Positions 3,090 to 35,158 of a stretch of DNA of 38,464 nt are shown piece by piece (positions within the stretch are counted from its first letter, which is position 1; each line of letters begins with the position of its first letter). Under the pieces are notes generated by a model. That model ran no database searches, was not told the DNA's origin, and saw nothing but the letters and a program-made list of their open reading frames with translations. This DNA comes from Phoronis australis (taxonomy: Eukaryota > Animalia > Phoronida). A program made the translations under genes and the position numbers. Where the stretch lies: contig NMRA01000050.1 of the NCBI GenBank assembly GCA_002633005.1, positions 154,959-193,422 on the forward strand, read 5' to 3'.

Positions 3090-4100
3090 TTCTTTGATGA
3101 TTTCTTTGTGATGTGATGTGATCTGTGTGCATATTAAATTTAATGTTGGGGTCTAAAATAATGCCCAATACTGAAACTTGTAGACACTCTCGACAGAAGA
3201 TCCGTTGGTAGAAAGAGACAGTTTCTGTTGTTTTAATTTCTCTTGGGTTCCCTACAGCATAGATTTGGTATTACTAACGTTCAGAGTGAGTTTATTTTGA
3301 ACCACCCAGTCATGGATAAGGGCTAGTTCATCGTTGAGAGAAGTTTCAAGTTCAGTCCCTGATACAGCTGTGGACATAATTGCGATGTCGTCAGCACATA
3401 AAACTGGTACACTGTTGTGGAAGACAGTAGGGAGATTGTTAACAAAAATCGTGAACAATAGGGGGTCCAGAGTAGTCAGAAATAATACCACCGTACTTGG
3501 TAGCCTGTTTAGGTCGTAAAAGTAGTTTTTAAATCAAAGAAGCTCGTTACCCCCATAGGAGTCTAGTTTCTTTAATAGGTTACCATGATCCACAATCTCA
3601 AAGGCTTTCTTAAAGTCAACAAAATAGCACCTGTAAGCCTCCCCTGATCGATATTGGTAAAGGTAAACTCAGTAGCGTGTAGCCAAAGTAGAATGTGTGG
3701 GGCGGAAACCAGACTGTGCTGTCGATAGAAGGGAATTTTCCTGCAGGAACTAATGAAGCTGCTTTTTGACACAACTTTCAAGATTTTTGGACACTGCAAT
3801 GAGGACCGATATCGGTCTATAATTCTCGCAACTGTACTTTTCACCGTCATTAAAAACAGGAGTACTGCCTGCCATCTTCCAATGATTAGGAATTGTCGAC
3901 GTTTTTTAAACTTGACATCATGATATTGGTAAGCGGCTCAGCTATTTGCGTACACGCCAGTTTTAATTGTTTGCTATCGATGCCACTTGCACTACTCAAG
4001 CTTAAGAGTTTTTATTTGTGCTCTTACGTAGTCAACTTGAATGGTCTGAAACTTAAATGGTATTCCCTTCTGTACCTTGGGCGGGAGTTAAAATAGTTGA
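3090..4100 (-). pseudogene. Degenerate non-LTR (LINE, CR1/L2-like) reverse transcriptase fragment
   Basis: RT motifs occur in the expected order across frameshifts and stops on the minus strand: WKMA..TPVF, YRPISVL..VSKNLE, FVDFKKAFEIVDHGNLLKKLDSYG, PLLFTIFVNNLP, LCADD (YADD box), WVVQNKLTLNVSNTKSM, GIILDPNIKF. Confidence 0.9.
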
Positions 4101-5528
4101 CGCACTGAATTTGTATGCCGATTTTAGCCAATGCCAGTAAAAAATCACCAAATGCATTTGGTGTGGTAAAATAAACATTTAAGCTAAAATCTGTATTCAA
4201 TTTAGTTTAATTGAGAAAAATCAATGTCATGTCAAAAGAGCATTAGTTGGTCCTACATGTAGGTTTCGAATAAGGGTGTATGCGTAAACATCCGTTTCAT
4301 GAAATTTTTAACAAAATGAAGCGGAAGCAGAATCTTTACGAAAATGCGTAGTGGAAACATTTTAAAGCAATAAAATGCTACGATTCCTTTTCAAAATTTG
4401 CTGAAAACGTTTTTAGTGCATCAAAGTCTAAAAATAATTGCTAGGAAAAAATATTTCAGTAACTAGCAGTGATGTACATACTCTTCGAAAATTTGCATTT
4501 TGTTCAAAGGAGATCTAAATATATCTTAAAATAGCTGTAAGACCAAGTTTCATTCTTAACTTTAAGCCACAGTTCATAAAACAGACTCCAAGTGCCAGGG
4601 GCCTGATTGCGAAGAATCTATAGCCAAATGCTGATTTGTTTTTGGCTTTTGTTTTTAGTGTACTACCGAGCACGCTACGGATTCCTCTGTTTTGGCTTCG
4701 ACTTTGTGAAACAGGCAAAGCAGAGCGTGGTTCCAATTTCTGGAACAGTAGATAATTTGCAAACGTCGAAACTGTCGAGTTTTCAGTAAGGCCGTTGACG
4801 CTGCTACATACAGAAAAGGGAAGTCTGTATGCACAACGATAACTCTGAGCCATGCGCACACCCAACCTAAATATAGGGGGGGGCTAGAATTTTTTGATAT
4901 GCGCACCTTTTACTGGAGGAGATCAACAAGGACTAAATAAAAATGGGGCCACTGTGTTCAGGCCCAGGAATTGTGCATTAGCGCCGAGTTTCCGTAAATT
5001 TTGAGGAATTTTGTCTCGTTTGCTTGGACATTTTGTTTCGTTGAGGTGGACCTTCGTGCCCAACTCACCAAATTGGGGGGCTCGTTCAAACTGCTCGTAA
5101 ATATTTGGACTCAAATTCGGATATGTAATGTGGTCCAGAAGGAGAATGTTCTCACGTTACATGTACCTTCCACCAAATTTTCAAATCAGGCGTGCTTAAA
5201 TGATTGATTGCACCTCATTGCATACTCAGAAGGATTTTTTTAGTTTGAGAATGACCTGACGAAATTGTTTACATGTATCCGTACATGCATTGCTGGAAAT
5301 GGGGACAGCTCACAAATCTGAAGGTTCACTTCTCCAAAAATATCTAAAACTTCGAACTTGGGTTTAACTTTATACCTTTTTATGCAAAAGTAAACGATAC
5401 TACGGTTATTAGATGAGCTGAGTGGTGTACCTATACCGAAAACAACGCCCGGGCACTATTGAATTCATGGGCACACAAAATTGCCCGCATGTCTTACGAA
5501 TACGGAAAATGAGTACGTTCTTGCACTT

Positions 5529-6172
5529 TTAAAAGGATTCCAAACCCGGTTTTGGCCTACTGACAATGTTTAAAAATGACTTTCCCAATCCAGTTCTCTG
5601 AAACAAAATGATACTCTGTAACCCTTGACAACTCTCAAAACCTAAAAAATTTGCACTCCTTTCAAAGTTTGCTAAACGGGCAAACGTGACCTACGCTTTT
5701 TGTGAATTGCGTGGCCACTGTGGGAAAAAACACCCACCAAGGACCATAATGTCCAAACTGTGACATTGGCTGCATAGATTTTTAACTGATCCCTTCCTTA
5801 AAAAGGATTCTAAGCCCTGTTTGGATGATTTTAACCAATCGTCGTTCTCGGACCTGCTGGTGCATAAGTAGCGTCAAAGATAAAAACAGGAATTAATTAT
5901 CTAAGAATTCATACCCACTATCTCACGAATAGGACGTTGTGGTGCTTGATGGGTGGTGTTTTCCCAAAGATGCCATGTCACTCGCTAAAGACGTAAGTCA
6001 CGCTTCCCCCTTTAGCAGACTTTTATAGGAGTTTTCTAATTTTCCTCAATTCTGTTGATGGTTGTCTAGCCCATTACAGAGCATTACATGTATTTTTGTT
6101 TCAGAGAACTGGATACGAAAGTCGTTTTAGTATCTGTTAATGGGCCAAAACCTCGTTTGGTATACTTTTTAA
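5529..6172. mobile_element. Foldback/MITE-like element with long imperfect inverted arms, TTAA at both ends
   Basis: Arm ~5530-5800 is the reverse complement of ~5885-6170, e.g. atccagttctctgaaacaaaa vs ttttgtttcagagaactggat, and aaagtttgctaaacgggcaaacgtgacctacg vs cgtaagtcacgcttccccctttagcagacttt. TTAA at 5529-5532 and 6169-6172. Confidence 0.75.
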
Positions 6173-8818: not shown

Positions 8819-9559
8819 ATCCCAATGAAATGAAGACCATGGGCATAGGGTATAAATACCTGTCCTTTCTCATTGAATGACATTAACTTTTCCTTTCAGA
8901 AGGAATGCTTTATACTAATCGTAAAAAATTTTCAACTTGGCACAAATTATGGGGAAATGACATTCAGTGACTGTATCGATTGTCTTATTGTCTGTAGAAA
9001 GCTCGTTAATGTTACACTTTGATGATCGAATAAATATTTCATCAACAGGCAAGTTTGTCACTAATTATTAAAACCACAACATTTCTTCACTTTTATAAAA
9101 AGCCCCATACAGTGCAGTTATGCTTACTCTTTATAAAGCTGAAACGATTACCGAATATGCTTGCGAATTGTCATTTTCCTGTTGACCTATAGAAATGTAC
9201 AGCGGTCAAAATGAAGTATACCTTTTGTTTGCATGAACTTTCTTAAGAAGGCCTTTGAACAATTTTAAGTTTTCTGTTAACTTGTCAATAAACAAAAGTT
9301 CCACATGCAAGAAAGGTATGTTTTCAATTGTAGCTAGCTGGATAAGGATCTGCTATGCACAAGAATCGGGAATAAAAAATTATCGGTGCGTCACGTACCA
9401 CATACAACCCTTATGTTGGGCGCATTCCCACCCAGGACAATATGTGAATATGTGCTGCTAGCCTAGCCGGCATCCGAGTCCCGAGTGAGTTTCCGAAAAG
9501 AAACAATTAGTTCCACTCAATACTCAGTGGGGTAACTGGTGGGGAAAACATCACCGAAC

Positions 9560-9851: not shown

Positions 9852-9996
9852 CGCATGCGCAATTCAATCACCACTTGTACAGCAGCGAAACCGCGAGAAT
9901 TCTCCCTATCGCTAGGATTATGACGGACGACTTAACTGACCAATCAGAACGCAGCATTCTTGGCACACCTTCGTCTGCGTTTCCAAGCCGCCATTT
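9852..9996. promoter_or_regulatory. Putative bidirectional promoter between the divergent THAP relics
   Basis: NRF1-like cgcatgcgca (9852-9861), CCAAT box gaccaatcag (9938-9947) and YY1-like gccgccattt (9987-9996). Confidence 0.45.
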
Positions 9997-10066
9997 AACC
10001 CGACAAACCACACACAGTCGAGTAAAACTTACTTTAGTCTATAGCTCAAGAAATTGTCCGCTAAGA

Positions 10067-10287
10067 ATGGAGAAACGCTATTGATATAGCGTATGTAGCA
10101 CCGACAGCCGTTATGCTGCTCCAGAATAATATCCCGTCATTTTTAGCATGTCCAAAGCCGAAAACTGATGTTGAAAAGCGTAAACTATGGATCAAACTGT
10201 ACGGCCACACGAGCAGCTGAACTTAGCGATGTTGCTTGATAACTCGAAGGCTATAATAAACACAAATACATGTATATTAGTTCCAAG
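10067..10287 (+). pseudogene. THAP zinc-finger domain relic (rightward)
   Basis: Across stops and frameshifts: MEKRY*YSVCSTDSRY...PKPKTDVEKRKLWIKL..RPHEQLN...YMYISSK. This matches the THAP pattern C..C...FP...W...YVCSK. Confidence 0.8.
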
Positions 10288-10964
10288 ATACGCACTTTTC
10301 AGCTTAGTGGTGGCTATGGTGCAGGGCTATCTCAGATTTTGACTCCCGAGTCTCCTACGTCTGGCCACCTTTGTCTCGGCACCTGCTGGATCTCAGCACT
10401 CTAGCTGTAGTCCCCGGATATTGTTGTTTTCAAAGACATTTTTATTTTGTTTTTTTTTAATTATGTCAACCTAATGGAAATTATTTTGTTTCGTATCAGA
10501 GGTGCATTTTTGTTATTCATGAACCGTAGACTGGCGTTCAACTGAACTTCTCTCCCGGTCAAAATTCAGAGATTCGATCGGCACAGGGAAGGGCACTGGA
10601 TTATTGCCAGAACTCAAAGCCTTGGTCGAGCTGTTGTCACTAAAAATAAACTGTTGAATTACTTTATTACGTGTACCTCTAGTATACACTAAGTCTGCAG
10701 AGAGAGCTCATTTTGGAGTGGTTCAAACATGATATTTAGATTTATGAAGCTCTAAAAAGAATTTGAGTTATTTTTGTAAATACCCTATTTTTGCAACTAC
10801 CACACCAGACTTGTAATCTTTTGTAACCATACCACGACTTAGTGATCCATGCTACCTTCAAAATTAAATGAAAGCTACCTTTATGGAGTGAAACTACAAA
10901 AAATGCCAAGTTCATATGAAGGTAGACCTAATTTAAATGTCTTAATGGTGCAAACGGACAATTC

Positions 10965-11281
10965 CATAGGCGGATTTAGGGGGGAGGGCAGGGGCCACAA
11001 CTTCCCCAACCCTTGGCTGCCGCAAGCAAAATGAAACAGCAAGAACGTGAGGAAGTATTGAGTTCAGTAACTAGGACCGGTAGCAGAAGAGGGGGGGGGG
11101 GCTCAGACCCCAGATCGCGGCGGAATCGTGTTCCTGTTTATTTTAGTCCACCGATAGATTTTCTGAACAGAAGGTCCAACGGTCTACAACCCTGGCCGCC
11201 TGTGCACATACAATCGCACTTTGCCCAATTCCACGAGGTAACATATGTTGGCCCACCTGTAGTATCCTAGATACGCCACTG
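10965..11281. mobile_element. MITE (same terminal type as 7644-7797)
   Basis: TIRs cataggcggatttagg / cctagatacgccactg. Perfect 5-bp TSD aattc at 10960-10964 and 11282-11286. Confidence 0.88.
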
Positions 11282-11900
11282 AATTCCAGACAGCCCTAGA
11301 CCTAACGGAGGACGAGATGGGTGTGTACCTGAGCTATGAACCTGAATTTTTTGATCAAAATATTTCGTTACAAGATTAGAAAAGCTATCGAGTCGATGTG
11401 TTGTCTGTAATCTATGACCTACTTTAATCCAGGAGTCCCACCAGTTGTGACCTATTTTTCATTTGGCGAAATTGAGCAGACGACAGAATAAAAATATCGG
11501 TGAATCTTCACTGATTTTATTCGAAAGATCATGAAATCTACGGTATAGTACGCATAATTCGACTTTAAGGTACATACCTAGCTTTACAAGAACATATCGT
11601 ATCAGTGGCCTTGTCGTTTGTCACTGGTGGCCCTGAGCCCGAAGGATTCTTCGGATTTTCGCAGGCTCCTCGAGCACTTATTTTTTATCGTCACCTTTAC
11701 AAATTCTCATATCATGAACGTACTATTCACTGTTGAAAAGCATCGCCTCTTGTCTCTGCCGACTCGTTTTCAAATAGTGCAAAAACACTCATCGATTCCA
11801 CCAGGAACGTCGTTTAGCGACAGTGTAATTGCCTCTGACATTTCGTTCGAATGTCGGGTATCACGTGACTTTTCGCATATTGGCGGAGCTTGCGATAGGT

Positions 11901-12333
11901 CAATTGTGCATTGCTGGGTAGCCACTGAGAAATTGGCTGCGATTTTAGGTAACCCTCAAACAAGCCAGAATTGCCAAAAAACTAGTTGGTTGACAGTTTT
12001 TTTGGACCACATTTTCGGAGTCTGTAGGAAAGTTGCTTTCAGAATCTATTGTTGGTTTTAGTCGTGCATCGGCAGGGAAGTGGTGTTTTTGGGGGTGAAA
12101 AGTGCCGATTTTGCACTTTTTGGCCCTATTTTTCTTAGTCTAGCTTGGTTTTCAGTGGGATTGAAATGGTCAAAAATACAAGAGAGAATAAAGTTTCTGG
12201 GCTCATCTGCAGGGCTTTTTATGTGAAATATCTGAAAACATGTCATCCTTTGCATCCTGTTTTTGACAGAGTGAAGAAAAGGTGACAAAGCAACTGATGT
12301 GGGTTTTGCCCAGCAGAACTGTTCTGTGCCTCC
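11901..12333. repeat. Long terminal direct repeat, copy 1 (left end probably truncated)
   Basis: caattgtgcattgctgggtagc...aactgttctgtgcctcc is highly similar to 15554-15991 in the same orientation. Confidence 0.95.
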
Positions 12334-12665
12334 TTAAAAGAAATGGCGAAATTTCAAGTTTTGGCACCAGTTCTTCTCTCTGCCACAAATCAAAGTCAGA
12401 ACAATAGTTTTTGTTGAATATTTTTTCATTTTTTTTGTAGAAATTGAAGAAAGAATTGTGTGTGACTTTGTACTTGGATCAGCAGATGGCACTGGAGCCC
12501 GGCACCTGGTTGTGGATGTGGTGCTTGCGATTAACTTCAGACACTCATTAATGCATTTGAAATGACAATTTAATGTTCATCAGCAACATTGTGACAGTGT
12601 ACTACAGTGCAATTAAAAACAACTGCCAAATATGCTTTTACAGGTACAACAACCCTCTCTCTGCC

Positions 12666-13047
12666 ATGGCCAGTGCATTCTTCCAAGCACCCTTAAATAA
12701 CCAAGAATCCCATAGTCTAAAACAAACCCTCTCTTTAAAATCTCACCCTGTGGGACAGTGTCAGCTGTGGACAGGTCCTGTAAGTAAGAAAGGATACGGT
12801 GTTCATTGTGTTAAACTTCGAGGGAAATATATCAGCGAGAGTACAAGCTCATCGCTTGTCTTATTACTTGCATGGCATGCCCCAGCGGCTGTCCCAGTCC
12901 CACCACGTCTCCCACCTCTGTCATAACCCTTCCTGTATAAAATTCTCTCACCTTTCTTATGAACACCCCAAAATTAACAACTCAAGGCAAATTTGTAAAA
13001 ATAAAATCATGCCTGCTGACTATGGTAATCCTATCAAGAGCTTTTAA
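12666..13047 (+). pseudogene. His-Me finger (zinc-binding loop, homing-endonuclease-like) nuclease, frameshifted
   Basis: CQLWTGPVSKKGYG, then after a frameshift near 12825, AHRLSY...VSHLCHNPSCIKFSHLSYEHPKINNSRQIC. This fits the His-Cys box pattern SHLCHN..C.NP.HL..E....N..R..C. Confidence 0.92.
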
Positions 13048-13093
13048 GTTCCGTTTATTTTTTCATTTGGTTATTGCTTTGACAAAAATACAG

Positions 13094-14939
13094 TTAGTAA
13101 CTACATGTAAGTCCGTAGCTGTGGTCAGTGGCACTAGTAGACGCTATGTTTTCCGTACTATAAACAGATTTGTCAAACAGATTCGTGTTGGCCATCCTCT
13201 CCCTTAGGTAGTACCTGGCCTTTTTGTACTCTTGGCTCAACTTTCTCTGGGCATGGTGGCGCTTTCTGGAGTCGACATTTCACAGCATTTTTCTCATGGC
13301 ACTGTTTTCAGGCACGGTTAGTCCTGATTCCTCGGCCAGCTTCACCGTGGATTTCCCTTGTCCCAGGGTTCTAGAGTGAATGGCTGAATGACACAGCCCC
13401 GTGAAGTTTCGAGTGTATCTTGATGTCTTTGTCGCATGTGCATAAGCTTCTGCATTCAAACTTTCACTGACGTTTGTGTTGAAAAGATAGTGTATATCTC
13501 TTAGCTGTTCCTGGTCAAAGTAGGGATTGATTTTTGTTTGAATCGTTTTCAAGTCCTTTTCACTCAGTTCTAGATGCCGGTCATAAGGCAAATGATATGG
13601 CTTGTTGTACAGTTGCTATGGTGTGCAATGCACACAGACGACAGCTCGCGACATTACTGGTGCTGTCCCGAAAAACAGCGAGTAACATTGTTCCCCGCAG
13701 CAGGTCCAACTTTCAAAAATTCATCTCTTTCGATGTTTCTGTTTTTTAGGTTGATGAGCTCTTTTCGCACTCTGGCTCGTACAGCAGATGAAAGTTTCCT
13801 CTTGTAACAAGTCTTGTTATGTGACCTGGGTAAACTTTTCGAGTCCGCTTCGTTAACGCTTTTTTCCATTCGCCTCAGTCTGTGAATGAAGCATTTGTAG
13901 TGTTTAGGTTTTTTCTTTTGGTACTGTAGAAATCACTTCTTGGTTGCTGACATCGGTCGTAATGCTCCTGATATTCAGGTCCACGCCGCTGATTTCCACT
14001 GCTCTGAGGCTGGCTTGTAACAGGGTGCGTTCACTTGATGCAATTGATTTCTCAGCTGGGTAGTTTTGGCTGCAGTGTTCATGCTTGCACCTGGGAATCC
14101 TGCAGTGTTTGTTAGCCGTGGCAAGGGCCAGTGGAAGTTTTAGGGTGGTTGTGTGCTCAACAAGTCCATTGAAGCTCTGCTTAGCTTTCTCGCAGCCACC
14201 CTGTGGCTAATTGGAGTAGGAAATGTCAAACTGAACGTCTGCAACACCTTCACCGCCAGCCACAGTGGTGACTTTTTTAACGTAGCGCTGGTTCTCAATC
14301 ATTTGTTCTTCGTTCAGTTGAGTTACTCTGTGGCTCATGGCATTCATTTTATTCTGCAGACTGCGATTGGATGGTGGCACAATATTCAAGCATGTCAGAA
14401 TGTTGATTACATCCTCAATTCCCACTTTTGACATTTGCACAGGCAATACAGCCTAGCTGTTCAAGGCTCTAGGTGGTGGCCTAGTCTTCTGCTACTTGGC
14501 ACAGTGGGCGATTTATATTTGCAAACTCTGCAGTGCAATGATGCATAGACACACAGTCCCAGTATCTTTTCAACAATTAGCTTTAGTTTTCCAAATTTGC
14601 ATGCAACCTGATGCACATGTCCCACCAGGCCTGTTAAGCGACGCACGTTAATGATGATATTCTCATCCAGTCCTTTGCTGTCATGAATTTTTCTTTCTTT
14701 TCAGTACTTGGCCTGAACCTGTAAGCTGTCGCAGCAGCATCACTGTCAATTAGGTAGGTGACATCCTCAGCTTCGAAATGTGAGAGACGCTCAGCCGTGC
14801 AATCGTCTATTGCTGCCTTGGGCTGCCTTGGTATGCTGCAGCTGCAGTAGTCCATATTGGAGTGCCTGTGTCCTTTTTTAAATTGGCATTTTATTCTCCC
14901 TCTGCTCCTAGTGAAACAACGTGGCTTTTCAGGATACAT
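13094..14939 (-). pseudogene. DDE transposase (Kolobok / Mutator-like fold), disrupted by stops and frameshifts
   Basis: Contiguous fragments: N-terminal QFKKGH, zinc-finger HCRVCKY, VQFDISYSN (D at 14225-14227), RSITTDVS (D at 13952-13954), YKCFIH (CxxH), NTNVSESLN (E at 13463-13465), RNFTGLCHSAIH, C-terminal DHSY, stop at 13094. Confidence 0.88.
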
Positions 14940-15553
14940 TGTGTGTGCTCATCACTCAAAGCTTGTTCTCATGACTTTTGTAGTTATGCAAATCGATTCT
15001 AATAAATATGTCCCCTATACACAAGGGGCCTTGATGAGAACATGTTCCACTTGTGGGGTTAGGAAATTAACTTAAATTAAACTTTTATTGTTATATCAAT
15101 GTGCTAATTTATCAATTTTCCCCAATTCCCTCAATCAAAAGTCTGTTTAGTACAAAGTAGGGCAAGAAATTGCACTTGATGGCTTTGTCTAGCTGTGAAA
15201 TGGCCCTAGTTCAAAAATCCCAGTTTTTGGGTGGGCACATGCAATCGGCTTGAAAAATCAAAAACGGTCATCGCTTCACGTTTTTACTTTGCAAAATAGG
15301 TCAGCAGGTGGAGAGGAACTATTCTGAACAAAATTTGGAAAATGTGGCACTGAATAGTTAGGCTGCGGCCGCGGCCAATTTGCACTGCCAAAACATTAAA
15401 ATTTTGGGGTAGGCCAAGTTTGGGGGCATTTTGTAGGTGGGCATTGCACGTAGGCTCAGTGAATGTAGTTTGTTTGCATTTGTGAAAATGCTGAGAAAAA
15501 AGCCACTTTCTCGGCTGTAGCTGCACTCTTTTTCAAGATAGCGGCCCCGGGTG

Positions 15554-15991
15554 CAATTGTGCATTGCTGGGTAGCGACTGAGAAATTGGCTGCGATTTTA
15601 GGTATCCCTCAAACAAGCCAGAATTGCCAAAAAACTAGAAGTTTGACAGTACTTTTGGACCCCATTTTAGGAATTTGTAGGAAATTTGCTTTCAGAATCT
15701 ATTGTTGGTTTTAGTCGTGCATCGGTAGGGAAGTGGTGTTTTTGGGGGTGAAAAGTGCCGATTTTGCACTTTTTGGCCCTATTTTCTTAGTAATTAGCTT
15801 GGTTTTCAGTGGGATTGAAATGGTCAAAAATACAAGAGAGAATAAAGTTTCTGCGCTCATCTGCAGGGCCTTTTATTTGAAATAACTGCAAACATGTCAT
15901 TCTTTGCATCTTATTTTTGACAGAGTGAAGAAAAGGTGACAAATCAAGCGATGTGGGTTTTGCCCAGCAGTGAGAACTGTTCTGTGCCTCC
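15554..15991. repeat. Long terminal direct repeat, copy 2
   Basis: Same-orientation match to 11901-12333. It may extend further left, where copy 1 has no counterpart. Confidence 0.95.
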
Positions 15992-18009
15992 TCAGGAACT
16001 TGTCTTGAACATTTTCATTTTTTCCTTGTAACTGAATGTGCTCTCGCTTGCTCGAAGTTTTCATTATTTTGTTATATTAGTAATATATCGTGATTCGTTT
16101 GTGTATGTGTCGTGTATTTATAGTTTGTAGTTAGTGTTCGTTGAATTTCTTTGGAATATTACGCGTACTTATTATGTTAAAATAGCATTGGTGTTTATTT
16201 CCTTACGTAGGGCGGTCGAACCTAGGAACCAATATGAGTCGAACCAATTTTTTCTTTCTCGTTTTGAAAAAGTGCTTTGCTATCATTGGAAAGTCAGTGC
16301 ATCCTACTAAGTAAAAATCGAAAAAGTATCAAAATCAGGGCAAGTACTGTAAAGTTAATGTAAATTTTGTGGAGAAATTTGGGTCACTTTGTTTGGATCG
16401 CGTCGGCTATATTGGAGGACAGCGGTATAAGTTACGAGTTTAAAACTTTGTGTAAATTGTTTTTGCCAACAATTTACGGTGAAATTTAGTGAGACATATC
16501 TTTACTTACTGCACGATTCAACAGTGTTCACCAAAGTTCAGCCTCGCAGTTGTTACTCATTAGGTGATAAATGTGCCCACAATTCCCGTTGGACTTCGTC
16601 TCATTTCTGGCGGCATCGACAACATGGCGACTTTTGCTGAACTGTAAGGGATGTTCAACCTGTTACTTTGTAATTTGTGAAGATTTAACGTTGATACATT
16701 TTGACAAACGTTGCTACAAAAAAGAAACTTTGTTCAATTTTTGTGTTTTTGTGCAAAAATATGAGATAATTCGAATTATTTTACTGTGAATTTCCCATTC
16801 AGGTGATCTTACACTAAGCTAAAAAAAATTGAAATAATTTTGAAATGTTTTTTGTTTGATCATCAACTGCTGTTCAAGGCTTGATTAGGTGTCACAAAAT
16901 GATTCATATTTTTCTAAATTTTAAGTCTCAATTGCTTTCAAGTCATGTTTTGTAACTTATTGCTTCTTAATTCAGGTTATCAAGTCAACAATATGAAAAA
17001 TCTTAATTTGACAAATATGCCACATGTATGTTGGATTGTGAAGCTTCAAGCCTCCAATTCTTGTTCCTTCCAACTTCATATTTTTTTAATCATGCTTGTC
17101 AAATTCTGCTGTAAGGAAACACTATTCGGTCACCATGGTAATAGTTACATGTATGTCCATTTTAATATCGTGGAAACTTTTGCTGTTGAATAGTGTTTGT
17201 AATGCTAAATGTTGTAAAGTATTGTGCATTTTAAGTTACTTATTATGTTAAGAGGTTGAATCATTTTGGCTTAATGAATAAATGTGATAACATTTTGTAT
17301 TAGACTTGTCATACTTATGTGCTCGAACGAGCCCCCTATTTGGAGAAATAGAAAAAGGTCAGCCTCAGTCAGAGAAGCACGAACTCCGAAAAAAGTAGAA
17401 AACGAGACGATATTCCATTAGAAGACAAGAAGTGTCAAAATTTAGCGTCTGCAATTCATAACTCTGAACATACCCAGTGAATCTTATTGTAAAAGATAGA
17501 CATTCCCAAAAATTCCAGCCCCCCATTTTTTGAAGCTTGGTGCGCTCACACAAAGTCTGGGAAAATCTCTGTTGAAAGTCAACACCTTTGCACAGTTTGC
17601 CAGAAGTAAACGAGTTCTAAATAAACCTCGTTTGAGCGAGCGCTGTGGCCAGCGACCAGGTGGGCCTAAGGGTAGCCTTGGCCCATTGGCCATATTTCAT
17701 CAGCAAACTCAATAAAATTGTATTTCGATTTTATTACAATCAAGTTGCGCTGTCCATTATTTTATTCCCGTTTGCAGGCGGGTAACAGGCACTCGTCCAT
17801 TCACACAGACGGTGTTTTCTTAGCCTGGGTTCCTGAACGAATTGAACTTCTGAGTTCGCGGCAAGTTCAAAAGGGGGGTGGTTCTTCGGGTGCGAATTGT
17901 GAGTGGGGCATTCATTTAAACTTTTTTCGAATACGGATCGTGTATTAGTTATGGGGATCCTTATAACATCCTGTAACCATGTAATAAGGGTTAATAACGC
18001 GTGAGACCA

Positions 18010-18445
18010 GGACTTTAAACGGACAATATTATCGCACAAATGACCCATGACAGACAAATTGCAATCTGGAATGGATCCGGCAGAAACCGAAAAGAACCCC
18101 CCGCCCCCTGAAATGAGCTAGCTCATACACATGAACAGTCGAGGTACCACAAACACAATTAAATGTGATTCAATACGAGTCAATGATCACTAAGTGCCCC
18201 ATGACAGACGAAATACACTCTGGGTTGTGCCCGCCAGAAACCCCCAAAATTTTCAACCACCGTATGCCATTGAAAAATTGAGCTAGATTAGGTACAATGT
18301 ATATACGAGGCACTAGCTAAAACTGATTTAAAACGGACCATAGTACCGCACTGAAAACCAAGTGACCCATGACAGACAAGTTGCATTCTAGAAAGGGTCT
18401 GCCAGAAACCTAAAATGACCCCCCCCCCCCAAATAAGCTAATTAT
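18010..18445. repeat. Degenerate tandem repeat, ~3 units of ~155-170 bp
   Basis: The core catgacagac...(c/g)cagaaacc recurs at 18046, 18200 and 18368, each followed by a C-rich tract and gagcta/aagcta. Confidence 0.85.
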
Positions 18446-19394
18446 TACACCGATTTATGTAAAGTGCAGAACGGTGTTGCTCAACATCTGTGTTCCGCGG
18501 GGCAAGACAAACATATGCATTAGCTGCATGGCCCTTGAATGGGTGACATTTGTGTAACAAAGGGATTAAAAATACTTCGTTATGGTCCTAACACTGCAAT
18601 ATTTTCCCACCGCCGAGATTGAGCTCATAGACTACTAGGCCATAGTCCATTCGACTCTAGGAAACCTAGAAAATCACTTCCGTGGTCACTTTTTGGGGGC
18701 AAGATAATTTTGGTGTTTTTATGGTCATTAAGTACTATCATACTTTAAGAATGTAAAAAGTTCCGAAGGTTTGATTTTCACGTTTACGAGAAATTTGACC
18801 TCAAAAATCTGACTTTTTGCATAATTGGCTAAGAAAACCAATCTTCAAAAACCAACAACACAAGCTAAAAACTGAATGATAATTTGATTGGGATTTGTTC
18901 ATTTGATGTTACTGGACAAGAAAAGTGATATATATTATGATATTTGTTGGAAATTTGCTCAAAAAAGAGATAAAGAAATATTTTAGCAGCGCCTCCTGTT
19001 AGCCAGAAAACATACCTCTACATTCTGATCTGCCAAAAAAACAAATACTGTCAAACATTTTGATGGAACTTGATGAAGATTTGATATCACAACCTACATA
19101 TGAACAATCTACATTTCCAAATCCTCTGAAACAAATTCACTGCCATCATATTGATTAATTGTCACAATTAATTATCATTTTCCACATTGCTGTTCACTGT
19201 CAACTGTCACAGGGAACGATACATCCAACAGTCCCCACAGTCTTCAGCATGTTGTAAGTATTTTCCATTAGGTTGAAAATTTAAAGTTCTTTAACAACAT
19301 AGCATACACTTATTGTGTTTTTTCATCCACTCCATCATCATTTATATCACCATTATTGCCGCCAAAAGCTGATTTTTTTGACTGAGACACCGTG

Positions 19395-19790
19395 TTCACA
19401 AAGTCTGGACAGTCAAACAACTTAGAACATGGCATGCCTGACTTCAAACAAGAACACATTTTTTACTACAACCACTTCTTTTACACTTGCCATTAAGATT
19501 TTTCGTGGCATTTTCTGGGGCTAATGGCAGAGCCATCCAGTGGAACTTCAGAATAACCTGCTCCAAAAGCCACCCATTACCAACTGGAGATGGTGCACTG
19601 ACATGCTGTTGCAAGACTCGTTTGTGAATGACACACTGATAGTTTGATCTTTTAGCGTGTAACAGCAAACGATCATGAGGAGGAGGCAGATCACAGATTT
19701 CAACCTGAATATGTGGTAGCGTGCTTTGTTAACTGTTGATGACTCGCGGTACAGCTCGTCTACAAACGGTTCAATGTCTTCCATGAGTTA
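19395..19790 (-). pseudogene. Academ-type protein C-terminus with Cys-rich (Cys8/CXC) finger
   Basis: IEPFVDELY..VNKARYHIF, LLHAKRSNYQ..PSPVGNGW...W..PLAP..KCKRSGCSKK, then after a frameshift CSCLKSGMPCSKLFDCPDFVN. Confidence 0.8.
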
Positions 19791-20916
19791 ACAAGGAAAC
19801 TAAAATTTTGAGCCCAACTTTAATGGCAAAGACAAAGTTAGAAAAATCTCTTCAAGCCTGCATTCTACCCAAAATAAAAAAAAGTTTTGGTAACCTGAAT
19901 ACCGTTTCATCTAAACACCTTGTTACAGTAATCCTATTGAATTGAAATACATGTAGATAACCAAAATGCTCTTCGCTTTAGCAGACAGTACGGCCAACAA
20001 CTGAAATTTCATTTTATCAAAGTGCTCAGCGAAAATAAGCATTAAGAGAAATGAACATCATTATTAGCATTGATTGCACTGTGCAGCTGCCTTCAAACAA
20101 TTTAAAACATAGAAACATTTTTATCATCCTTAATACAGAAGTTCAGCCTTTGAAAAATAGAGGAATGGTCATATTGGCAATAGTTTTAGCGTCTTCTTTA
20201 CAGTAGAGCTAAAATTTCTTTTGACTTCCTGTTTTAAAATGCACATAATTGGAAGATTAAATATTTTCTTCGATAAAAATTCCCATTCAATAATCTTCAA
20301 AACGTGAGATACTGAAATCTGCGCAACACTTGAATTTTCAAAATAAAGGAATTACAGAACACAGGAAATATGTCCAATTTTATATTTCTCAAATTCTAAG
20401 CACTGCTCATGACTTTACATTAAAGGGTCTAAAAATAGGCTTAGAAATTCATAAAAGCACTGCTGATTTCTCGCATGTAGGTAAAAACTACTGCCAGTAC
20501 ATTTGGGATTGAGACGAGTATTATTACAAATTTATCAAGCAAAATAGTTTTTGGGATGTGACCTAAACTAAAGATCATTTACCATAAATGATACCTTTTC
20601 AAATTAAGCATAGGTAGACCTTTTTACAAATGAATCTTTGGAACTGGGATAGATTTTCAACTTTTCTTTTGTTTTTGAAGTTCTCCTGTGATGAAATTTG
20701 ATTTGTGGCAAATGGTGCATTATGGTGGCAAGACATATACGGTATATTTCTTTGAGCACTGTTAAATTTACATGTAACTGACAGTGACAATCTCCTTAAT
20801 TTTCTCTTGGGCTCAACATTATTTCCATCATCAGTTTGGTCTCTTTTTCTTTTTTAAAAGCTCTTTGAATTTTTGTTACATCCGTTAAATGTCTGTAACA
20901 CTGTCTGTGATAGAAG

Positions 20917-21153
20917 CATGCGCGCACCAAGCCTAAAAATGGGGGGCTCGAGTGGACATTTATTAAAAGTCACGGGGTACTTCAGATCTACGAATTGTGT
21001 GTTCGTCGATTTTTTGTAGTACATGTACCTGCCTTTTTAGTGAACTTTTGTTTCGTTTTCTACTTTTTCGAAGTTTTTGTTTCACCGAGGCGGACATTTT
21101 TACTCACTTTACCAAGCCCCTGAGACTCCCACCCCTCAGTGGGTATGCGCATG
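20917..21153. mobile_element. Small MITE nested in the Academ-like element
   Basis: Imperfect TIRs catgcgcgcacc / ggtatgcgcatg. The left end resembles 4851-4887 (catgcgcacacccaacctaaatatagggggggctag). No clear TSD. Confidence 0.6.
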
Positions 21154-24720: not shown

Positions 24721-25322
24721 CTATACCCTCCTTATTTTAAGAACTGAACTTTTCAAAATTACGTGTTTTCCTGGATAATATTTCATGCATTGGTTCTCGT
24801 TTTGGGCTGGGCAATTCCCGCTAGTTGGATAAATACTATTTAAAGCTAACCTAGCACAGTTTGCATACCACCACCCACCACTATTTATTTCTGCACAACT
24901 TTTTTTGTTACTTTGGTCATTATCTTGGTCTATTGTCGAAAAACGAGCTCCGTTTAATTCGCTCATCGAATATTTGGGATTGGAGTCAACATTTGCAGAT
25001 ATTGACAATTTGTATTTCTCTTTCTCATTGGCTATTGCGAATGAACTATGTTCACGTGTTACACTCGTGCCATGCCATGTGGTCATTACGTATTGTATTT
25101 TGTACTGAGCCTGCTGAGTGACGTATTGAATGTTGTCATTTCCGAGCCACAGCTCTCCTCCGAGGTCGCCAAAACCATTCATATAGTCTGACCCGTGCCT
25201 TTTGAAATCAACGCTTCCGTTGAATCTTCGCTGAATTACTATCCACCCTTCTTCGCAGATCACATCGAAGGTCTTGTGACGGTTCAGCGGTCGGATGCGC
25301 AGAACGCCGTTGTAGTGAATGC
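24721..25322 (-). CDS. Fibrinogen-related domain protein (FReD; ficolin/angiopoietin-like), terminal exon or pseudogene
   Basis: The open frame has C..GWIVIQRRFNGSVDF, Y.NGFGDLGGELWLGNDNI, FSTIDQDND, CA....GGWWYANC...LN and the terminal LKIR. It extends upstream of the listed start (GIHYNGVLRIRP) to a candidate acceptor tttttctag at 25323. Confidence 0.9.
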
Positions 25323-26322
25323 CTAGAAAAACTTAATACAATCTGAATTCCACGTGGTGCTCTATCTGTCTAAACTGTATGCGAGTGTGTGGCTTTCTGA
25401 ATAGAGTACACGTGTTGCTCAGAGTCACAAAATTGCACATATCTTCAAAATTATCGCACACAAATACATATTCGTTGGATTCTCAACGAAATATCTGTAA
25501 AAAGAATATCGGGATAAGTACAATCAAATAAATGTGTATTTTTCTTAAAATCAGATTTTCTTCCTAATATTTTCACCTTCTGTAATACCCATTTTCTTGG
25601 TTACAAATGGGATTTTTAGGCATTAAAAGGCTAATGGTCACACTTGACAAAATACACTGTTACGTCGAGTATGACAATATACGCCGTAGATATAGACATA
25701 TGTTGCCCGCCAGGGGACAATGTGTCGGCATTCCCGGCACGTATTCTTCATGAAGGATACTGTCAACACCTGCACAAACATGTAGTATCCCCCGGGTGAC
25801 AATATGTGCCGCTGATCCCAGGATGCATTTTGAGCAGTACATTACATGTAAGTGGTTTACGTTATTTGTTTGAGGGGGCCTTTGGTCACAAGACAAATAT
25901 CAAGGTTGTAAGGGGAAAGGACATATTCTGAAAACTTGAAGAAAGAAAAATGAGGTCACGCATGAATGTTGAATAGACCAAAGTATATTAGACCCACAAG
26001 TGAATTTGACTTTTTGTGTTGGAGAGGGATCTCGGTCAATGGCCATGGATCATGCTGTGTATCTGGACGCCATCCCCAAACTAGAAGGAGGTGGAAAGTC
26101 GTAATACCAACCGACGTCATGGTGTCATTTCCGACATCATTTATGTAGCGCTTGTCACCCTCTATCACCAAGAAGTTCTGACAATAAAAATACATTCAAA
26201 TGGGTCTGAGGCGTTCTACTGATCGAGATTGGGGGCAGGGGATAAAAGATTGGTTCCACTATTTTACGTGCTCCACGCCTCATGCCGTCTTAGTCATCTT
26301 ATTCAAAATTATCACCCATTGT

Positions 26323-26365: not shown

Positions 26366-26707
26366 NNNNNNNNNNNNNNNNNNNNNNNNNNNNNNNNNNN
26401 NNNNNNNNNNNNNNNNNNNNNNNNNNNNNNNNNNNNNNNNNNNNNNNNNNNNNNNNNNNNNNNNNNNNNNNNNNNNNNNNNNNNNNNNNNNNNNNNNNNN
26501 NNNNNNNNNNNNNNNNNNNNNNNNNNNNNNNNNNNNNNNNNNNNNNNNNNNNNNNNNNNNNNNNNNNNNNNNNNNNNNNNNNNNNNNNNNNNNNNNNNNN
26601 NNNNNNNNNNNNNNNNNNNNNNNNNNNNNNNNNNNNNNNNNNNNNNNNNNNNNNNNNNNNNNNNNNNNNNNNNNNNNNNNNNNNNNNNNNNNNNNNNNNN
26701 NNNNNNN
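26366..26707. other. Assembly gap (N run)
   Basis: Run of n bases. Confidence 0.99.
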
Positions 26708-26780: not shown

Positions 26781-26942
26781 CAGTGCTGTCAGTGATAAAA
26801 TTAGAGGTAAGTAGGCGCCCAAAGCCCGCCGTATCACCTTGAGCACTGAACTTAACTTACGGACGGGTGCGTAATCGCTACGTACAAATGACAAAATCTG
26901 GTTGGCTGCGCCTACGTGCGCCTACGCCCCACTACAGCAGTG
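26781..26942 (+). mobile_element. hAT-like MITE, copy 1
   Basis: TIRs cagtgctgtcagtg / cactacagcagtg. 8-bp TSD tcgaagtc / tcaaagtc (7/8). Homologous to 32982-33119. Confidence 0.9.
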
Positions 26943-29900: not shown

Positions 29901-30282
29901 AGGACTATTTCCGATGGTTAGTTATAAAATAATGCTGCTTTTTCCAAGAGTATCACAAGAATAGTATTTCTTGTTTAAGATCATTGCTAGGAGTTGTTTG
30001 AAAAGACCTGTCGAAAGGCCTGCCAGGGCTCCGATTTGTGATGACCATCTACATGTCGAACGGGGGTACTCAAAGTACTCTCGAATCATAAACAAGGATG
30101 TCAGCGTTTTTTCCTTGGAATTCAAGTTTACCTCGTGAACTGTTATAGGTGCTGAGCAAAAATGCACCTTAACACGAATGTCCCATCTCAAATGTTCCCC
30201 CGGTTACCCGTCTAGAATCTGCGAACATGCCTGAGGAAACTGCTTATAACATTCCGTTTTGATAAAAAAATTCGTTGGTTTC

Positions 30283-30975
30283 CGATTTACATGTTTATGT
30301 ATCTAGGAAAATCGACAGAATCACAGATGATTTTTGAAAATTAGAATCTAGTATTGTAAAAATTGACGATGTTTCAGTGAATTTAGTTGCAGCCTGAAGT
30401 TGGAAAAAACTTTATAATCAAATCCCAAATAGAAACGTACACTTCCGTTCCCTAATCTAAAATACATCTCAAAGACATTGCTGAAATACGGACAGTTCCC
30501 AATTTAAATGAAAATGTATTCAATGCATTTTGACTGAGGCTTTAGATTTGTCGTTTAAACTCACAAACAGGAGATCAAAAAGAAGTTGAGTCATTAAATC
30601 ATGCTGAACGCATTGCTCGTTGAATCAATTGTTGATGTCTGGTTTACTTGTTTATGTACATGTATCTACAAATATTCGACTAATTGACAGATAATTTTAA
30701 CAATCAGAAGTTAATCATTTACGAAATAACGATGCTTCAGTGAACTAAGCTGCAGGCTGACATCGGTAAAATTTTATCTACCATCAGATCCCAGTAGCAA
30801 AGCACACTAATCTATTTTTGTCTATCTGAAATACGTCTCAAGGATAGTGGTGAATGTCGGAGAGCTCTACAAAATGTTTTCACGATGCAAATGACAATAA
30901 ATTGTTTATTGACTTAGGAGACATATTAGTGATTAAATTCACAAACTGAAGATCGAAAAAAGAAGTTTGAGCCCT
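30283..30975. repeat. Diverged tandem duplication, ~360-bp period, 2 units
   Basis: acgatgtttcagtgaatttagttgcagcctga vs acgatgcttcagtgaactaagctgcaggctga, and ttaaactcacaaacaggagatc vs ttaaattcacaaactgaagatc, at similar offsets. Confidence 0.85.
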
Positions 30976-32981: not shown

Positions 32982-33119
32982 CAGTGCTGTAGTGGTAAAA
33001 TTAAAGGTAAGTAGGCACCCAAAGCCATCGTATCACCTTGAGCACTGAACGTAACTATGTTCAAATGGCAAAAGGTGGTTGGCTGCGCCTACCTGCGCCT
33101 ACGCCCCACTACAGCATTG
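32982..33119 (+). mobile_element. hAT-like MITE, copy 2
   Basis: TIRs cagtgctgtagtgg / ccactacagcattg. 8-bp TSD cttaatgg / cttaatga (7/8). Confidence 0.9.
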
Positions 33120-34568: not shown

Positions 34569-35158
34569 CTCGCTGGTTCCGTGCGTGCCGCTAGGTGGGG
34601 CGGTAGCCGGGCCAGCACGCAGGTATCACTTAAATTTCCTCTGTAAATTTTTTTACACCGGCGTTTCTGATTGGCTAGTCGATTCGTCAACAGGCAGCGC
34701 TTTGCGCAAACAAACTGGCATGGCTGATGGACTGAAGTGTAAATGTGGTCTGTTGTACAGACAAATCGGTGCTTAAAATTTATGTTCAGGAAATGTGAAG
34801 CCTAGAAATTGTGACTGAGCCTTTTCGGAATGCATCTTTCTACTGTCGATGACTTTTGTTTACGATAATGTCCTTATACACTATGAATAACACACCGGTT
34901 AAATCGGCCACATAATGTGTGTTTATTGTGCATGTATGTGTTTCAAGCACGCGGCTATTAAACATCACTGCAGAAACGAAATAGTTGCTGCGACGCCACT
35001 TGCATGACAAGGCTAAAAATCGTTCACAGTCCGCCATTTTTTCAAGGTGTTGTAAAGCTAACCAATGACTGCCAAGATTACATCGACCAATGCTAAAGCG
35101 CGTGCCACTGCGTGATACCTGCGTGCTGGCTGAGCTAAGCACGCAGGGAACCAGCGAG
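34569..35158. mobile_element. Non-autonomous TIR element with 9-bp TSD (AcademH- or MuDR-like; superfamily unresolved)
   Basis: 20-bp TIRs ctcgctggttccgtgcgtgc / gcacgcagggaaccagcgag (1 mismatch), an inner block gccagcacgcaggtatcac / gtgatacctgcgtgctggc, and a perfect TSD gttcaacag at 34560-34568 and 35159-35167. Confidence 0.92.

Follow-up and report, generated by a model that had tools for sequence, protein, structure and literature searches.

What kind of mobile element encodes a DDE transposase together with a homing-type nuclease and is bounded by long repeats in the same orientation, how does it keep this composite form, and what does the nuclease do? The question is raised by the interval 11901-15991 of a 38,464-nucleotide stretch of the Phoronis australis genome (GenBank assembly GCA_002633005.1, contig NMRA01000050.1, positions 154,959 to 193,422 of the forward strand), which is referred to below as the window and whose own numbering is used throughout. 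The original prediction, made from the letters alone, regarded the interval as a decayed KolobokP-like DNA transposon, possibly new for its host. With high confidence, we propose on the basis of sequence comparison that it represents an inactive minus-strand copy of KolobokP-1F_PhoAus, a Kolobok DNA transposon with the organization long terminal direct repeat (LTDR) - internal region - LTDR, described from Phoronis australis by Kojima & Bao 2022 (PMC9587614). Identities to the published KolobokP sequences were counted by hand on the printed sequences rather than taken from program alignments. A decayed transposon of the KolobokP type is what the anatomy, the broken genes and the agreement with the published consensus all show. 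The suggestion of novelty has to be withdrawn, as the match to the named family extends from end to end; the lineage, the family and the host are already published, and this copy adds nothing to the 2022 description.

Long terminal direct repeats and their inverted ends

Comparison of the window with itself returned one long direct repeat (11901-12334 and 15554-15992), 92.7% identical over 440 columns. In the global alignment of the pair, 407 columns match, 25 carry substitutions (10 transitions and 15 transversions) and 7 are gaps (Kimura two-parameter distance 0.060), and the local score of 712 compares with a maximum of 30 among 30 shuffles. The two same-orientation repeats of the original prediction are thus real, but their presumed length of about 435 bp is not: the published LTDR runs beyond the earlier boundary, the match reaches 15344, and the whole repeat measures 648 bp. 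Only the right copy is whole; the left one, which on the minus strand is the 3' LTDR, is truncated to 433 bp, its outer 216 bp being gone. A search for this missing part with a 209-bp query (blastn, word size 7, within the window) found only the self match, the next best having an E-value of 0.93; the missing sequence could lie beyond the window or inside the gap at 1614-1766.

It had also been supposed that direct repeats replace inverted termini in this element. In fact each whole repeat has inverted ends, and hence the element does possess terminal inverted repeats (TIRs; Table 1). A candidate TIR at the earlier left boundary was rejected, as no more than 6 of 16 positions match at any of 8 offsets around it, versus 13 of 16 for the whole repeat. 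According to the accessible part of PMC9587614, each KolobokP LTDR carries short TIRs and RR...YY ends, the LTDRs fall into classes of about 450 or about 660 bp, and a target-site duplication of 3-5 bp (3 bp for KolobokP-1F_PhoAus) lies outside them. The published internal region of KolobokP-1F_PhoAus, as given in the sequence file of the same paper, starts and ends with TTAA. Of the two predicted TTAA junctions, one is kept in the window at an inner junction and the other has been lost by a small deletion. The interpretation of TTAA as the target duplication was rejected, since TCAG comes after the outer end that is still present and TTAA is internal. The right flank next to this end starts with TCA, the left end being absent, and a contig with 0 differences covers 15968-16170 (run X2, possibly from the source sample of the window).

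Long same-orientation repeats with 6% divergence are what a long terminal repeat (LTR) or DIRS-type retroelement would also show, and this possibility deserves to be stated, even if we assign it practically no probability. The ends, however, read GG...(C)C with 17-bp TIRs instead of TG...CA, and the transposase is a Mutator-like DDE enzyme with CxxH. None of four reverse transcriptase (RT) and gag patterns matched in the six frames of the internal region (12334-15343), and the lone weak RT match of the window (3255-3533) is more than 8 kb away. Taken together, the ends, the missing RT and gag patterns and the type of transposase refute a retroelement; the earlier statements that no RT or gag motifs are visible and that the element is not an LTR retrotransposon were both correct.

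The two genes and their decay

The minus-strand DDE transposase postulated in the original prediction (D..D..CxxH..E) is present, with all its motifs (Table 1) in the same columns as in the published alignment. The domain search envisaged there, run on fragments, returned PF20700 (Mutator-like transposase) for the transposase and PF05551 (zf-His_Me_endon) for the nuclease. PF20700 matches 3 of the 6 transposase fragments, one of them above the cut-off (38.1 versus 26.5 bits). The accessible part of PMC9587614 defines KolobokP by a DDD/E transposase that contains C/DxxH and is encoded on the direct strand, a CCHC finger after the first D and another finger between CxxH and E; both fingers were found in the window transposase. 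The 87%-identical match, KolobokP-1F_PhoAus_1p, belongs to the published KolobokP tree, in which it is placed, according to the figure text, among the families with LTDRs of about 660 bp. The window gene is dead owing to five frameshifts (near 14697, 14497, 13936, 13908 and 13594) and five premature stops (14494, 14455, 14209, 13656 and 13282); other copies represented by read contigs, among them the deepest variant described below, differ from the window copy at all five frameshift sites.

The convergent plus-strand His-Me finger nuclease was likewise identified correctly. It begins at 12666, and one of its two fragments matches PF05551 with an E-value of 1e-11. In a comparison with PDB sequences (E-values up to 10), all three matches listed are chains of I-PpoI (E 0.17-0.32, not significant alone). 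At 107 of 111 residues the protein is identical to the KolobokP-1F_PhoAus nuclease, and its motif pattern is that of the KolobokP nucleases in Data S4 of PMC9587614. It shares the SHLCHN...HL..E...N motif with the His-Cys box homing endonuclease I-PpoI; unlike the latter, which belongs to a group I intron, it is encoded in a transposon and broken. By eye against the published consensus, the reading frame is interrupted twice: 4 nt are inserted near 12835, and near 13003 a stretch of 29 nt is missing, and with it one Cys and one His, likely ligands of the second zinc site. After the nuclease core, the plus-strand frame is open to 13207 (13004-13207), antisense over the 3' end of the transposase; two indels relative to the published consensus are both multiples of three (by eye), which may be chance.

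Table 1. Coordinates of the KolobokP copy, its parts and the adjoining element in the window
Feature	Position	Strand	Evidence and remarks
Remnant of one KolobokP-1F-type element (5' LTDR - internal - truncated 3' LTDR), probable	11901..15991	-	Colinear with published consensus, by eye
5' LTDR, whole, 648 bp	15344..15991	-	GG at the start, no terminal C; versus 652-bp KolobokP-1F_PhoAus LTDR, ~25 substitutions plus 6 indels (hand count)
3' LTDR, truncated	11901..12333	-	Consensus positions 1-436 only; ~14 substitutions versus 1F LTDR (hand count)
Outer TIR of 5' LTDR (element 5' end)	15975..15991	-	13/16 positions match inner TIR; plus-strand flank starts TCA
Inner TIR of 5' LTDR	15344..15359	-	Terminal C and adjoining TTAA gone; ~15-nt deletion between two CCAC motifs
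TTAA at junction of internal region and 3' LTDR	12334..12337		TTAA at both ends of the published internal consensus
Dead His-Me finger (I-PpoI-like) nuclease	12666..13018	+	PF05551; CxxWTG, GYG, HRL, SHLCHN, HL..E, N intact
Dead DDE transposase	13094..14939	-	Motifs located; 527/604 residues identical to KolobokP-1F_PhoAus_1p (hand count)
First D	14225-14227	-	DDE transposase
CCHC-type zinc finger	14072-14104	-	After first D
Second D	13952-13954	-	DDE transposase
CxxH	13882-13893	-	DDE transposase
Second zinc finger	13630-13677	-	Between CxxH and E
E	13463-13465	-	DDE transposase
Antisense 'exon' of family transcripts, joined to itself or back to 13312	14705..14830	+	RNA joints in X7-X9; acceptor AG 14703-04, donors GT 14754-55 and 14831-32
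Unrelated TIR element, not part of KolobokP	9905..11906		Loose read ends; 10/11 inverted match of two ends

Assignment to KolobokP-1F_PhoAus and its alternatives

The window LTDR is about 96% identical to that of KolobokP-1F_PhoAus, and the internal region (12334-15343) is colinear by eye with the published internal consensus, matching to both of its ends, with a length of 3010 bp versus 3111 bp. Table S1 of PMC9587614 describes the family as 4423 bp long, with LTDRs of 652/660 bp, a target duplication of 3, TIRs of 17, and 85 LTDR and 2 internal copies; both window repeats are of the 652 type. The window copy thus resembles KolobokP-1F_PhoAus in its LTDR type, its 17-bp TIRs, the TTAA inner junction and the position of the nuclease on the strand opposite to the transposase, and differs from it by two broken genes, the absence of 216 bp from the 3' LTDR and one transposase segment of only about 80% identity.

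Other named systems are more distant in one respect or another. KolobokP-1_PhoAus belongs to the same transposase lineage and LTDR group but, unlike the window copy, is devoid of the nuclease core, and its LTDR is of the 660-bp type. Canonical Kolobok elements (Kol0), as characterized in the accessible part of PMC9587614, share with the window the DDE transposase with C/DxxH and the RR...YY ends; according to the same part, they have a single TIR pair, a TTAA target duplication and a KolX protein, without long direct repeats or a His-Me nuclease, in contrast to the window, where TCAG follows the surviving outer end and TTAA is internal.

One could also imagine two independent insertions of solo repeats, with unrelated genes for a transposase and a nuclease lying between them by chance. 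According to the accessible part of PMC9587614, LTDRs often occur as solo copies in the KolobokP lineage, the family counts 85 LTDRs versus 2 internal copies, and no target duplication is visible. Such a coincidence is nonetheless most improbable, and we regard it as refuted, given that the interval is colinear with the LTDR - internal region - LTDR consensus in print; the internal region agrees with its published counterpart as far as both ends and retains TTAA at the junction that is intact. Moreover, three differences common to both window repeats are absent from all 4 published phoronid LTDRs and speak for insertion of the two repeats as one unit, and in two contigs of run X6, which represent other copies, the sequence continues from the repeat into the internal region.

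Several observations weigh against the assignment to KolobokP-1F_PhoAus. The identities to the published sequences are hand counts; the left end, and with it any target duplication, is gone; and no contig spans the junction at 11901 among the matches listed (32 listed, 6824 further). The transposase part is also further from KolobokP-1F_PhoAus than the repeats and the nuclease are: in 13367-13528, 33 of 162 nucleotides differ (about 80% identity by hand count), with 17 codons carrying synonymous changes only and 11 changing the residue. Such a synonymous excess indicates divergence under selection, and therefore the window copy or the published consensus is a mosaic of subfamilies. The copy-counting rule in the accessible part of PMC9587614 demands more than 90% identity and more than 99% of the consensus length. 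By hand count the 5' LTDR is above both values (about 96% identity, 648/652), and the internal region is below the length threshold (3010/3111) and includes the segment of about 80% identity, so that an unnamed sister subfamily, or a recombinant within the KolobokP-1 PhoAus group, has to be considered instead of a plain 1F copy. Two phoronid KolobokP subfamilies are on record by their LTDR only (PMC9587614, Table S1), and the deep contigs described below are 7-11% away from the window in the transposase versus about 4% in the repeat. We entertain this alternative tentatively and on the doubtful side: both repeats are of the 652-bp 1F type, the nuclease is nearly identical to its published counterpart, and the published consensus may itself be mixed. 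A sister subfamily would, in any case, be the same kind of element and would refine, rather than replace, the assignment to KolobokP-1F_PhoAus.

A deeply covered variant without the nuclease core

Of nine read runs, all except X3 were used, namely the DNA contigs of X1, X2, X4, X5 and X6 and the RNA reads of X7-X9, which come from one study. X1, X2 and X4 derive from one sample, possibly the source of the window, and are not independent of each other; X5 and X6 are small-share runs, from which only the joins within their contigs were considered. The deepest transposase contigs have depths of 2293 (X1), 16109 (X2) and 613 (X4), versus about 4-14, 33-72 and 3-8 for the low-depth contigs, i.e. 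a ratio of roughly 80-500 in one sample, although contig depth is no copy number. These deep contigs differ from the window transposase by 7-11% (e.g. 33/450 and 32/280 nt), compared with about 4% for the repeat, and skip from 12688 to 13066, that is, over the nuclease core. The joint has a depth of 2211 in X1 and 676 in X4; in X2 there is a loose end at 12688, and contigs of X5 and X6 also join across the region. The nuclease-core bin has depths of 56, 276 and 9.9 (X1, X2, X4), versus thousands, tens of thousands and hundreds in the transposase bins. The joint is carried by 19, 19 and 1 RNA reads in X7-X9. The same deletion is present in the internal sequence of KolobokP-1_PhoAus, of which 1 full internal copy was counted in the assembly (PMC9587614), whereas the contig depth is far above that of the low-depth contigs. 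Over most repeat bins the summed depth exceeds that of the internal region, an observation that bears only indirectly on solo LTDRs and multimers in the genome.

The deepest variant in Phoronis australis being without the nuclease core, this suggests that the nuclease is not needed in cis, and the opposite is unlikely.

Antisense transcripts and backward splice joints

The RNA reads contain splice joints; the figures below are among the joints listed, 15 per listing (with 101 and 140 further). In four of these joints every first mate lies on the minus strand, as expected of plus-strand RNA, antisense to the transposase. These family transcripts map to 13312-13431 and 14705-14830 on the plus strand. 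One runs forward (13430 to 14704; 14, 21 and 5 reads in X7-X9), and three run backward, from 14829 to 14704 (33, 56 and 19 reads), from 14829 to 13311 (9, 22 and 4 reads) and from 14751 to 14703 (19, 36 and 1 reads), spanning 126, 1519 and 49 nt, respectively. The three backward joints fit GT donors (14831 or 14754) and AG acceptors (14703 or 13310) of the window; the donor of the forward joint reads GT in the published sequence only, not in the window. Reads at least 99% alike to the window number 21/10284, 19/9313 and 40/6878 in the three runs, or 80/26,475 in all, and therefore nearly all of this RNA comes from other copies. Every bin of the examined stretch is deeply repetitive except the nuclease bin, where the RNA depth in the nuclease's own sense is at most 1; an unrelated transcript with 33 nt in common raises the signal in the bin 13020-13299. 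Elsewhere in the window, a GT..AG skip of 326 nt (8989-9316) lies inside a high-copy repeat and is supported by RNA reads of all three runs; its reads fall on both strands, and strand calls therefore need care.

The backward joints fit splicing from one unit to the next in head-to-tail arrays, which would bear on the idea that the nuclease builds multimers. It is tempting to consider that amplification of a KolobokP variant without the nuclease has produced some hundreds of nearly identical units, arranged head to tail (or as DNA circles), that collapsed in the short-read assembly, with long antisense transcripts spliced unit to unit. Multimers would then grow without the nuclease in cis, and the His-Me enzyme either would not be required for this or would be provided in trans by a small number of copies resembling the ancestor of the window copy. 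We place this scenario just short of an evenly balanced judgment. A non-exhaustive literature search found no paper on KolobokP arrays in Phoronis australis, and the coordinate file of PMC9587614 gave 0 rows of family-level multimers under the one name tried.

The same joints would result from back-splicing into circular RNAs from single copies (the selection of the RNA library is given as 'unspecified'), and the deep variant would then consist of many dispersed young monomers, which contig depth cannot separate from arrays. In one of the joints, however, both sides belong to one and the same 49-nt exon (19, 36 and 1 reads, with the flag 'between: not known'), and 49 nt is very short for a circular RNA. 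Multimers, furthermore, are documented for the KolobokP lineage in the accessible part of PMC9587614. We therefore think that circular RNAs from dispersed monomers are rather improbable, without dismissing them; in any event they concern this side result only and leave the assignment to KolobokP-1F_PhoAus untouched.

The left break and other features of the window

The 3' LTDR breaks off at the hexamer CAATTG (11901-11906), with which the unrelated TIR element adjoining on the left (Table 1) also ends. RNA reads have loose ends of low agreement both behind 11905 (0.45 for 162 reads and 0.51 for 202 reads) and before 9905, and in short copies of this neighbor 9969-10013 is joined to 11882. It is a TIR element of about 2 kb with many short deleted relatives and apparently with further repeats nested in it, e.g. 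near 10965-11280; the stretch at about 10070-10230, for which no Pfam match was obtained, we take from its resemblance to be a broken THAP-like segment. The sequence file of PMC9587614, in which line breaks could conceal matches, contains none of four 12-mers taken from the left flank. The right flank (15992-16659) is itself a deeply covered repeat.

The Pfam scan outside the internal region comprised 115 fragments (114 of 117 frames, the 3 that overlap the repeats being left out, and 1 added); only 3 had matches, none of them related to the KolobokP element. An open frame of 203 residues at 24721-25332 on the minus strand contains a fibrinogen C-terminal domain (E 9.6e-42) and is likely an exon of a host gene. 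The RVT_1 reverse transcriptase match at 3255-3533, also on the minus strand, has an E-value of 0.004, below the cut-off, and is likely a retroelement relic unrelated to KolobokP. At 17390-21068, inverted arms in two nested pairs (17390-17423 with 21035-21068 and 17521-17548 with 20919-20946, 79% each) suggest an old TIR element of about 3.7 kb. A second, older direct repeat (26781-26942 and 32982-33119) is 77% identical over 162 columns, its copies being 6.2 kb apart and the left one adjoining a gap of N at 26366-26707. Small fold-back elements with inverted arms, resembling miniature inverted-repeat transposable elements, are found at 5528-6172, 30269-30967 and 34569-35158.

History of the copy and the role of the nuclease

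The following history would account for the present state of the locus. The DDE transposase would have moved the LTDR - internal region - LTDR as one unit via the 17-bp inverted ends of the repeats; excision or copying of the ancestor would have taken place at the two outermost TIRs, and its insertion would have created a 3-bp duplication. Since then, the repeats would have drifted by about 3% each. Subsequently, the second TIR element probably inserted at the CAATTG site of the 3' LTDR, and the outer 216 bp of this LTDR, together with the target duplication, may have been lost or displaced. That action of the transposase at the outer TIRs gave rise to the window copy is, in our view, very likely. 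Today neither enzyme can be made from the copy, and one outer end is missing; its 5' LTDR, itself minus the terminal base, might at most be movable in trans.

The accessible part of PMC9587614 reports for the KolobokP lineage solo LTDRs, multimers and single-repeat excisions, with excision footprints resembling copy-out pathways. It proposes, as a model that is still hypothetical, that the I-PpoI-like nuclease cuts in or at the repeats and thereby leads to unequal crossover and multimers; this model is still described as unconfirmed in the accessible part of a 2026 review (PMC13565253). We consider the odds that the nuclease promotes multimers to be about even. The wider question concerns the maintenance of the composite form of KolobokP and the function of its nuclease, and the deep nuclease-less variant, found beside rare nuclease-bearing copies in the same species, constitutes a natural test case for the role of the nuclease.

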